DNA from: Gammaproteobacteria bacterium | GTDB lineage: Bacteria > Pseudomonadota > Gammaproteobacteria > JAJFKG01 | NCBI GenBank assembly: GCA_965116795.1 | Contig: OZ220716.1 | Span: 32,001 to 96,000, forward strand | Direction of reading: 5' to 3' | DNA: 64,000 bases | Shown: piece by piece, positions 21,138 to 23,767 of the stretch | Layout: each line of letters opens with the position of its first letter | Position numbering within the stretch: position 1 is the stretch's first letter | Notes under the pieces: model-generated | What the model was told of the DNA's origin: nothing | The model's database searches: none | The model's input: only the letters and a program-made list of their open reading frames with translations | Translations under genes and position numbers: made by a program

Positions 21138-21209
21138 AAAATAATTAAGTGTAGTTAACACCATCCATTGTTAGCTACCAATAAGGTGCACGTACTACTT
21201 CATTCATTG
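21138..21209 (+). repeat. 72-bp direct repeat, copy 1
   Basis: 71/72 identical to 23696-23767. Confidence 0.95.
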
Positions 21210-21409
21210 AACGGTGCAGACAAGGGATCACCTACCACGATAACTCGCCATCATGACTCGGCTGTTTTATCTATCTAAAGGGACGTTTTTTCTCTGTTGA
21301 GAAGAAAGCGGAAGACTTCTTTTACCGATAATTTGTTGGTTGTACGCAACGGGAACACAGCAACACCACAGCAATTGAAATGGCTACCTGCTGGTAGTCA
21401 TTAGGTGAA

Positions 21410-23590
21410 GTGGCAATGCCCGAAGATCGTAAGCGTAAAGCACAAGGTAATAGTCATGTTGACACTACACAACAGCAAAGTAATCCAGAAAAAAGAAAAA
21501 AATACAATCCACCATCGGTAACGTCGGAACCATCTATTGTTCCAGCAATCACATCATCAAAACAATCTAGTGATTCAGTAGCATTATCATCAGAAGTTAC
21601 CCCGGTTAAACAATCTAAATCCAAAAGCAATTTAACCCGGTTTGATACTCCAGAAACGTATACCCCAACAATATCACCTATCACAAAATCTCGACGTATT
21701 AAACAAATAGAAAGGTCATATAAAAACAACATATCGGTTCCCAAAGTGAAAGGGGTTGTCGCTGAACAAATTGTCGCGGATTCAGTAAAAAAAATAGGGT
21801 TAATCCAAGTACCTTGTGGTAAAAATGGACTTGACTTAGTATTTACTGTTAAGACTGAAGAACAACTTGTTGCGCTGAAAACGTTGTTATATCAGTCAGC
21901 TGCTACCAATCAATTAGGACAGCGTAATTCTCAACGACTTTCTGAAAAATCTAAAAGAAGTAACACCGAACAACAGATCAAAAAATATTGGGATACCGTA
22001 TGTGGTACATACGGTATCCCTACCGACCCACCTTTTTTAGTTGTTATTGAAACTAAGTCAGATAATGCAACACTTACTCGTGGCCAGAAGAATCCAGAAA
22101 GTTATATCCGAAAACATTTAGAAAAGTTAGCTAAAAAAGAGCATAGCGGAACATTAATTTTTGAGCCTCAAGATGATATTCAGCAAACTGAACAACATAG
22201 TGAATGCATTGAAGACACTAAAGATGAATATATAGAAGATGTCGAACAAGATGATAGTTTGCAGACACCTGACTATTATGCAAGGATTTGTGAATATCCA
22301 ATACTACCTCTGCTCGTTCGTGCTAACAATTTTCAACACGATACCGTAGAATTATCAATCGATTTCTGGGAACAACCCACAAAAGGTTCACGACGAATTG
22401 CAACTAATCCAATCACAGCACCTATTCCAGACGATTGCCACCATCTAGCCAATTCAACTCAAATTGGTTCAGCTACTGAAGATGCTATCATTGGTTGGCT
22501 AGTAAAATGTAATCAATGGCATTATGCAGGTGATGTAAAACATACTGGTGAGCACGGTATCGATGCTATCTTTTTTGACGATGCTGGCAATGTTTATGTT
22601 GTCGAAATTAAAGGGCATATTCATACCGATAATTACGAACGTAAACCTTTTGGAAGGCATTCTCTCAGCTTATATGATAATCAACTATCAAAAGCACAAA
22701 AAAATCCTGTTGAATTTGTTAAAAATGCATGTAAAAAAGCCATTGAATTTAGTACCACTAGTCAGCAATCACGTAAAAATGCACTAGGGTTACAACAGTT
22801 ACTAAAAGAAAATTATCCGCATGTTTATTTTCGTCAAGCAACAGCATTTTTACCGAATTACGGAGAAATAGGTACACTTGATGTTACTGTTAAGCAATGG
22901 GGCACACAAGAAGAAGCGCCATATTTACAAGAACAGGATGACGCTACACTATCCAGTAGCAATATGGCTATCACACCTCCAGCTATATTGCTTTTTGACC
23001 GCCAAAACATTCATACCTATCAATATCGACCACCCTTCAATGGTCGTAGTACGTCTCCCCAAACGTGTTCGAGCAGCTCATCTACATCCAGCACAATGTA
23101 TACAAGTAGTCATCCGGACAATACTAATTTATTTTATCCAAAACTGACCAGTAAGCCAAAGGCTAAACGTCAATTAGATAGGGGTGGTGCATTTGATCAG
23201 GAATTTGATGACTCTTTATCAAGTGAAGACAGCGATAGCGAGTTAGCTGGTTCACCTGATTTTGGATCAACCGATTTCAACACCATAGCAGATGATACAT
23301 TTGATTTTGATAGTCCCTTAGTTTACCCACCTGAACATGAATTAACTGCTCCGGATACCGATACTGAAAACCATTATGATCCAGCTGATCCAAAAGGTAA
23401 ACGGGAAGTCGATGATGGCACAGAAGATCCACTAGCAGAAGTATTTCCCTTATATGATGCTGTTGATTCATTTCATTCAGCTAATCCCAATAGTTTCTTC
23501 GCACCTTACCCAGCTAGCCCACAAGGAACGATGTCTTTTACACATGTGGTAGAAAAAGATACTACTGAAGATATGAATATATTGCCTTAG
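21410..23590 (+). CDS. hypothetical protein with two tandem PD-(D/E)XK-like nuclease domains, candidate effector
   Basis: Repeated G..xE..G(L/I)D..VxE(T/I)K..QKNP pattern; basic N-terminus, acidic disordered C-terminus; ATG at 21416 may be the start. Confidence 0.7.
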   Translation: MAMPEDRKRKAQGNSHVDTTQQQSNPEKRKKYNPPSVTSEPSIVPAITSSKQSSDSVALSSEVTPVKQSKSKSNLTRFDTPETYTPTISPITKSRRIKQIERSYKNNISVPKVKGVVAEQIVADSVKKIGLIQVPCGKNGLDLVFTVKTEEQLVALKTLLYQSAATNQLGQRNSQRLSEKSKRSNTEQQIKKYWDTVCGTYGIPTDPPFLVVIETKSDNATLTRGQKNPESYIRKHLEKLAKKEHSGTLIFEPQDDIQQTEQHSECIEDTKDEYIEDVEQDDSLQTPDYYARICEYPILPLLVRANNFQHDTVELSIDFWEQPTKGSRRIATNPITAPIPDDCHHLANSTQIGSATEDAIIGWLVKCNQWHYAGDVKHTGEHGIDAIFFDDAGNVYVVEIKGHIHTDNYERKPFGRHSLSLYDNQLSKAQKNPVEFVKNACKKAIEFSTTSQQSRKNALGLQQLLKENYPHVYFRQATAFLPNYGEIGTLDVTVKQWGTQEEAPYLQEQDDATLSSSNMAITPPAILLFDRQNIHTYQYRPPFNGRSTSPQTCSSSSSTSSTMYTSSHPDNTNLFYPKLTSKPKAKRQLDRGGAFDQEFDDSLSSEDSDSELAGSPDFGSTDFNTIADDTFDFDSPLVYPPEHELTAPDTDTENHYDPADPKGKREVDDGTEDPLAEVFPLYDAVDSFHSANPNSFFAPYPASPQGTMSFTHVVEKDTTEDMNILP

Positions 23591-23695
23591 TATTACGTAA
23601 TCAATACATAGTTTAAGGCATGACAAGCAACACTAAATCTATCAAAAAACCAAATAATCTTGATTGTGTAAAAATTATATATAATGCAGCCTGAA

Positions 23696-23767
23696 AAAAT
23701 AATTAAGTGTAGTTAACACCATTCATTGTTAGCTACCAATAAGGTGCACGTACTACTTCATTCATTG
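23696..23767 (+). repeat. 72-bp direct repeat, copy 2
   Basis: 71/72 identical to 21138-21209; TATAAT at 23680-23685 just upstream. Confidence 0.95.

Follow-up and report, generated by a model that had tools for sequence, protein, structure and literature searches.

A near-identical 72-bp repeat as a candidate shared leader of a predicted tandem nuclease gene and an unrelated neighbour in a gammaproteobacterial genome

Why do two unrelated genes on one bacterial chromosome begin behind almost the same 72 nucleotides? The question arises in a 64,000-nt stretch of DNA (the window) from a gammaproteobacterial genome (contig OZ220716.1, positions 32,001 to 96,000, forward strand), where a direct repeat stands once upstream of open reading frame (ORF) A, a predicted tandem nuclease gene, and once upstream of ORF B. 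All positions are those of the whole window. The source genome (G000) is a single contig of 2.45 Mb, and its only relatives in the order are G001 (same genus) and G002 (same family). We see about an even chance that the repeat belongs to a locally copied promoter-leader module, similar in layout to the PeSL cassettes of phages, which likely represses the translation of both genes. The main features are:

21138..21209, plus strand: repeat copy A, 72 nt (sequence comparison, genome BLASTN, contig depth)
23696..23767, plus strand: repeat copy B, 72 nt, holding hairpin 1 at 23709-23736 and the predicted anti-Shine-Dalgarno 8-mer at 23754-23761
21416..23590, plus strand: ORF A, 724 aa, two predicted PD-(D/E)xK domains with basic N-terminal and acidic C-terminal low-complexity tails
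23826..24359, plus strand: ORF B, 177 codons, its own ATG without a Shine-Dalgarno sequence

The repeat is real, unusual within its own genome and species-specific. Both copies are identical at 71 of 72 positions and lie 2558 bp apart, in agreement with the initial annotation. BLASTN and nhmmer searches of the genome return exactly these two copies (next nhmmer match at E=2). In sequencing run X1, the 44 nt that both copies share without mismatch collapse into one contig with a depth of 150, against 68.3 for the left flank, 70.8 for the cargo between the copies and 70.9 for the right flank (independent contigs); the copies are thus two real ones and not an assembly artefact. Since the cargo depth equals the flank depth in this run, there is no common deletion or excess circle, and a 2558-bp deletion allele or circle, as suspected earlier, is not present as a common form in contigs or depth. 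No joints or swapped allele at the variant base were found in four of four runs of one study, nor in a second four-run check, both made on contigs, where rare events, or crossovers within those 44 nt, would go unnoticed. The 72-mer has no copy in G001 or G002, and one of 60 relatives gave a weak partial match (E 0.0065, 38 nt). The exact 30-nt core is absent from the metagenome contigs searched, and leader A has no match among the plasmids and phages searched. Only three non-coding repeats of exactly two copies, 50-250 nt long and at least 93% identical, exist genome-wide; the 72-mer is the only one without a tRNA anchor, the other two being tRNA attachment (att) pairs.

Both copies are preceded by promoter-like sequence:

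21100..21128, plus strand: sigma70-like promoter before copy A (TTGATT, 17 nt, TACAAT), a consensus match only
23660..23685, plus strand: TTGATT and TATAAT with a 14-nt spacer before copy B, promoter-like and weakly similar to the promoter of copy A, but not called by the promoter scanner

The -10-like hexamers (21123-21128 and 23680-23685) end 9 and 10 nt 5' of the copies, very near the distance of about 10 bp first described. Of the two promoters the scanner called just that of copy A, and shuffled sequence has promoter-like sites at least as often as the real one (13.6 vs 11). The flanks had been described as dissimilar, which is true of the downstream ones, while the 40 nt upstream of both copies show weak similarity: 15 of 4283 AT-rich windows anchored on TANAAT, among them copy A itself, score as well. 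This upstream similarity decays rather than stops, which argues for a shared promoter-leader origin: promoter and leader are probably homologous together, and recent homogenisation covered just 72 nt of them. A GacA/LetA-type box upstream of copy A was discarded since 88 genome sites match the consensus equally well.

How such a leader could act is suggested by its predicted folding, for which the following elements are needed:

21151..21178, plus strand: hairpin 1 of copy A, whose stem has 10 bp, one of them G-U, and whose 8-nt loop contains the single difference between the copies
21196..21203, plus strand: predicted anti-Shine-Dalgarno 8-mer of copy A, pairing with 21405-21412 (fold prediction)
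21379..21402, plus strand: hairpin just 5' of the ORF A Shine-Dalgarno region (fold prediction)

The stem of hairpin 1 (21151-21160 with 21169-21178) has a predicted energy of -10.7 kcal/mol and a pair probability near 0.95 in either full leader; a 41-nt window around it, picked after the fact, gives z -4.9. The long CACC/GGTG hairpin proposed originally exists as a fold of the minus strand (-15.0/-15.8 kcal/mol, z -1.5/-2.0). On the sense strand it reaches only -2.9/-1.6 kcal/mol, about 8 kcal/mol worse than the 10-bp stem, which this strand prefers. The single mismatch falls in the 8-nt loop of the sense-strand stem. The 72-mer as a whole does not fold better than shuffled sequence (z -1.4/-1.5). 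In both leaders the same repeat bases, UACUUCAU, are predicted to pair in register with the Shine-Dalgarno region downstream, the target being GUGAAGUG in leader A (probability 0.65-0.74) and AUGGGGUA in leader B (0.75-0.92). Among 1110 control start regions, 15 accommodate the 8-mer, and when start regions are paired at random, 0.18% of the pairs have such an 8-mer in common. When the repeat was placed before the start regions of other genes, two of 150 chimeric leaders reached the value of leader B and six that of leader A. Together these predictions lend modest support to a shared pairing with both Shine-Dalgarno regions.

In the promoter-leader reading, both promoters would be transcribed, and the 10-bp hairpin together with the 8-nt tract, paired with each gene's own ribosome-binding site, would hold down the translation of both genes until some trigger opens the leader. 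An older duplication of promoter plus leader would have been homogenised recently over 72 nt by gene conversion or recombination. ORF A would be secreted by a Dot/Icm-type system, and repression would matter because a protein with two nuclease domains would need tight control, no immunity gene having been found next to the homologue.

ORF A was initially described as an orphan, but homologues exist. An exhaustive search found P0002 (513 aa, E 1.5e-64), and G002 encodes a 573-aa homologue (locus L018, 934-2655) with 23% amino-acid identity (hhalign probability 97.9, E 4e-13, 323 columns). The residues E117/D140/E212/K214 and E355/D383/E397/K399 are invariant in all five aligned sequences, which come from three lineages. 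The structural model of P0002 has a mean pLDDT of 60.7 (mostly above 70 in the core, 60-420), and both of its halves match YraN-like, Hjc and restriction-enzyme chains (best Z 7.9, root-mean-square deviation 3.1, 99 aligned residues). ORF A itself has sub-threshold Pfam hits of the PD-(D/E)xK kind, no sequence match to any solved structure (PDB), and, in an Atlas search with its core, matches to hypothetical or restriction-endonuclease clusters only (0.89-0.90). We therefore predict that ORF A belongs to the PD-(D/E)xK superfamily, the middling Z being trusted only together with the conserved residues; the earlier label ‘nuclease cassette’ was right in substance. No further homologues were found by word index, in the genome, metagenome or viral contigs searched, in 299 other scored genomes of the class (a sample without G002), or in G001, which is 90% complete. 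These tandem PD-(D/E)xK proteins form a small, unnamed family, which is a new lead. The loci of the nuclease gene in G000 and in G002 are unrelated, so it is mobile.

By inference from its sequence, ORF A is effector-like. The basic N-terminal clusters and the acidic tail suggest a nucleus-directed secreted protein; the acidic C-terminal tails would also fit a Dot/Icm translocation signal. A DotI/IcmL homologue occurs in all three genomes of the family (G000, G001, G002), each of which also has three to six CsrA matches, and a DotA model matched no genome, control genomes included. Two further observations concern the gene itself: a perfect 13-bp inverted repeat at 21990-22020, where the alignment to the homologues is poor, is terminator-like on the minus strand, and a minus-strand promoter-like site lies at 23604-23576, so that an antisense RNA is possible.

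The leader of ORF A contains a second element that does occur in a relative:

21281..21322, plus strand: second leader element, GGACG plus a 24-mer (21299-21322), outside the repeat; 22 of 24 positions are identical upstream of the G002 nuclease homologue

The G002 copy (L018, 2722-2745; G002:C57:41341-41364, minus strand) and the G000 copy are each the only one in their genome, and the 24-mer was not found in G001. Its upstream score of 38 is reached by none of 2000 shuffles. For comparison, 19 G002 genes were tested, 18 of which have a match in G000: nine upstream regions scored 18-22, and the other nine pairs scored higher through neighbouring coding DNA (judged by position). A 7-bp helix in the element is kept through one double-sided and one single-sided change, in a comparison of two sequences only. 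Two GGA motifs lie in the element and six in the G002 leader. The predicted layout of this G002 leader is that of leader A, in different letters: a 5' hairpin, long-range pairing of the region around the start (0.77, where 7% of controls attain 0.7), the conserved module and a hairpin before the start. If this layout is homologous, the nuclease leader would have the 72-mer as its original 5' part and copy B would be derived; we infer that copying ran from A to B. The 24-mer is arguably a stronger candidate for a conserved RNA element than the 72-mer. Its matches elsewhere (three viral ones and two of 399 other genomes) all lie inside reading frames and were taken as chance. It is not peptide-coding, having no start codon and changes that are not synonymous, and it is too weak for an intrinsic terminator (-2.2/-2.6 kcal/mol).

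An unlikely, more far-reaching version of the leader reading joins both elements. In it, the 280-nt nuclease leader would be an undescribed RNA switch in which the 72-mer, by its hairpin and anti-Shine-Dalgarno tract, closes a domain with the 24-nt element, itself kept between genera, and locks the translation of a self-toxic secreted nuclease. Its portable 5' half would have been copied to the neighbour, where it would pair with a different ribosome-binding site via G-U pairs and so wire an unrelated gene into the same control.

For that neighbour, ORF B, the orphan label first proposed agrees with the searches: those by sequence found no homologue and the Atlas no usable match. No toxin family was recognised in Pfam, NCBIfam, PHROGs or PADLOC. 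The claim that both proteins are dissimilar also stands, since they give no cross-hit. A metaeffector pairing of the two adjacent genes (PMC5199130, PMC7911563) is a possibility. The start of ORF B is peculiar:

23816..23860, plus strand: 14 codons in another frame than ORF B, opened by the only ATG here that has a good Shine-Dalgarno sequence
23792..23810, plus strand: third partial copy of the repeat core (13 of 15 at 23792-23806), running into the Shine-Dalgarno region 23803-23810

The 14-codon frame overlaps the 177-codon frame across an A/T run (23837-23846), in which no indel was seen in four of four runs. The partial copy at 23792-23810 is also an 11-nt complement of the 3' arm of hairpin 1; such a complement turned up in just 1 of 1110 control start regions, but it does not exceed what shuffled versions of leader B itself give.

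Several points weigh against a repressing leader. If both real start regions are kept, a shared 8-mer also arises in 4.25% of 4000 random 72-mers and in 4.0% of 3000 shuffled repeats, so that the controls differ on how rare the pairing is; all of them were designed after the fold had been seen. Long-range pairing of start regions is common (0.7 or above in 7-12% of control leaders), and the leaders as wholes fold no better than shuffled sequence (z -0.4 to -1.3). The 71/72 identity, which includes loops and the A-rich start, exceeds what an RNA acting in cis needs and points to recent copying; the other two comparable repeats of the genome are att sites. ORF B may be a gene broken near its start and under little selection, because ATG 23826 has no Shine-Dalgarno sequence and the well-placed ATG 23816 opens only 14 codons. 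Finally, the 72-mer is not conserved in the G002 leader, the one other nuclease leader available for comparison. The shared 5' leader suggested by the initial annotation thus has modest support, namely its position after the -10 boxes, hairpin 1 and the pairing of the same 8 nt, which by one control arises by chance in 4% of cases. Copying by recombination and leader function are compatible and not exclusive.

The genomic setting bears on how the copies arose. The repeat sits in an insertion of about 3.6 kb between ppa and nhaP. These genes are 130 bp apart in G001 and 101 bp in G002, with neither an ORF nor a trace of the repeat. The empty site therefore has zero copies and not the one copy that an att core would leave. 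The absence of a single-copy empty allele, named from the outset among the refuting findings, thus holds among the two relatives available. One more feature was noted here:

24380..24410, no strand assigned: terminator-like hairpin between ORF B and the convergent nhaP

Dispersed hairpin families resembling repetitive extragenic palindromes (REP) or miniature inverted-repeat transposable elements (MITE) occur near the insertion and elsewhere (20181-20325, 24491-24531, 20936-20970, 8036-8087). Further downstream, a perfect 35-bp inverted repeat with a 114-bp spacer (27429-27612) lies just before a low-GC ORF of 285 aa (27751-28608), which has no Pfam match; G001 also has non-core ORFs there. 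Elsewhere in G000, long proteins of one paralogous family have in common a 79-bp leader plus the start MKTQN (G000:C1:1154022-1154100, 1157364-1157442 and six other places), with one diverged copy before a different-looking protein (1131399) and one before a broken start (115413).

Which known class does the repeat resemble most? In the PeSL cassettes, T4-type phages RB49 and phi1 carry a sigma70-like promoter and a stem-loop before orphan-like genes in a variable region, and neighbouring copies can recombine to give deletions and mini-circles (PMC2839356). The repeat shares with this account the sigma70-like promoter (by consensus only, with a 14-nt spacer at copy B) and the adjacent stem-loop before a gene. 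It differs in having two copies on a bacterial chromosome instead of about 50 in a T4-type phage. Its near-identical part lies downstream of the -10 box, ends 48-206 nt before the starts and contains neither Shine-Dalgarno sequence nor start codon, the elements in which a PeSL cassette ends. Unlike the stem described there, that of the 72-mer is no G/C-tract, has no U tail and is predicted to act on translation and not as a terminator. No circle or one-copy allele was seen in contigs. By its copy number, its host and what it contains, the 72-mer is thus no member of the PeSL class.

Terminal reassortment of type III effectors also places common 5' regulatory DNA before unrelated effector-like genes. 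Here, only non-coding DNA is common, without an N-terminal peptide, and the secretion system is Dot/Icm-like. CsrA-controlled leaders of Legionella effectors are regulated post-transcriptionally (PMC5338858); the effector-like genes, the CsrA matches in the family and the GGA motifs of the second element and the G002 leader are in line with that account, but GGA is absent from the 72-mer and from the entire leader of ORF B. As for the nuclease, dual PD-(D/E)xK nuclease toxins of the CinB and pLbAR_38 type are described from intracellular bacteria (PMC6133264). ORF A resembles them in its two predicted domains with catalytic-type residues kept and in a host with a DotI/IcmL homologue. It is smaller, has no recognised protease domain, no PDB sequence match and no CinA-like partner upstream, and the G002 homologue stands alone; this comparison was made by PDB sequence search and gene context. 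We found no description of the 72-mer element in the literature, nor a like case in Dot/Icm bacteria, with supplements and most subscription papers outside the search.

Several other classes were discarded. An insertion sequence (IS) or MITE fragment, or a REP element, does not fit a repeat with two copies only, as such families are dispersed in many copies with terminal inverted repeats and true REP/MITE families in the same genome have 29-40 matches; the MITE origin named at the outset as a refuting finding is therefore not borne out. None of 41 tRNA and tmRNA genes found by ARAGORN lies in or near the insertion, and the repeat lacks the XerD-type arm that, with a XerC arm, makes up a dif or pdif module and that was searched for near the skew maximum. 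Rfam returned no family for the 72-mer or the leader, neither a riboswitch nor another cis-regulatory one, but only chance-level matches (E up to 10; snoRNA or lncRNA) far below the gathering scores. Ends of the integron attC type carry RYYYAAC/GTTRRRY motifs. The repeat ends have none, and the integron integrase model TIGR02249 stayed below cut-off in all three genomes of the family (no control genome reached it either).

The alternative to which we give most room, though we consider it doubtful, is that the repeat is a neutral crossover core or scar, by which ORF A entered beside ORF B via a circle or homologous recombination (att-like or PeSL-like), the pairings being incidental. Near-perfect identity and sharp ends fit this view, as do the mobile nuclease gene at its unrelated G002 locus and the two tRNA att pairs among the three comparable repeats, one of which surrounds a 2.8-kb islet without an integrase-like ORF seen. 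PeSL circles arise at about 1 in 100,000 (PMC2839356), which is below contig detection, and a study on the integron attI leader reports that such an identical 5' sequence before unrelated cassettes was once misread as a riboswitch (PMC9410878). That leader differs from the present one, since no integron integrase passes the cut-off in the genome and no attC-type ends are seen. Against a scar speak the zero-copy empty site of the relatives, the equal depth of cargo and flanks, the lack of joints or of a swapped allele, and a cargo without a recombinase gene and without a donor copy elsewhere in the genome. The minus-strand fold, read as DNA, is ordinary as well, since 29-30 of 200 shuffled sequences do equally well. 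Close strains outside the sample may have a one-copy state. The proposal of a recombination site for gain or loss of the cassette is thus unsupported by the empty site and the depths, with neither an integron integrase nor an IS1634 transposase at cut-off. The islet just mentioned (G000:C1:1806793-1809715) is an observation in its own right: it has two genes between 91-bp direct repeats at tRNA-Leu(CAA), which by eye look like an AbiE-type toxin-antitoxin pair.

It is rather unlikely that the repeat is a DNA operator, although its 10-8-10 inverted repeat and an overlapping 16-bp near-palindrome form a strong dyad at an operator-like position just downstream of both promoters, and the partial core at 23792-23806 could be a third half-site over the ORF B ribosome-binding region. 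The genome has no other near-perfect site (five others within two mismatches of the 16-mer, 13 within four of the dyad), the insertion holds no regulator gene, and an operator leaves the 72-nt identity unexplained. Type III toxin-antitoxin loci consist of tandem RNA repeats and a terminator, followed by a ToxN/CptN/TenpN toxin. An RNA antitoxin or processed small RNA of this kind was considered for the degenerate internal direct repeat of the 72-mer (units of 33-39 nt; two of 2000 shuffles equally good), for a nuclease downstream of copy A and for the length of ORF B, which lies within the range of type III toxins. We regard it as very improbable, as there is no terminator between repeat and gene, no toxin family in ORF B, no Rfam antitoxin, and no such units at the G002 homologue. 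Least probable of all is a long target-site duplication by a transposase of the IS1549/IS1634 type. Such elements make direct repeats of 8-514 bp (PMC2266710), but no IS1634-family match reaches the cut-off in G000, the cargo has no transposase and no terminal inverted repeats listed, and a promoter-like stretch stands at the same place before both copies.

If the locus is read as a copied promoter-leader module, a newly gained effector-like gene may get its regulation by copying the non-coding leader of a neighbour alone. Should the pairing be due to chance, the repeat would be an ordinary recombination scar; should it be real, one pyrimidine tract could silence different ribosome-binding sites and would thus act as a portable translational switch. 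From a bacterial order with very little sampling so far, the conserved 24-nt element and the small family of tandem nucleases are fresh leads in their own right.

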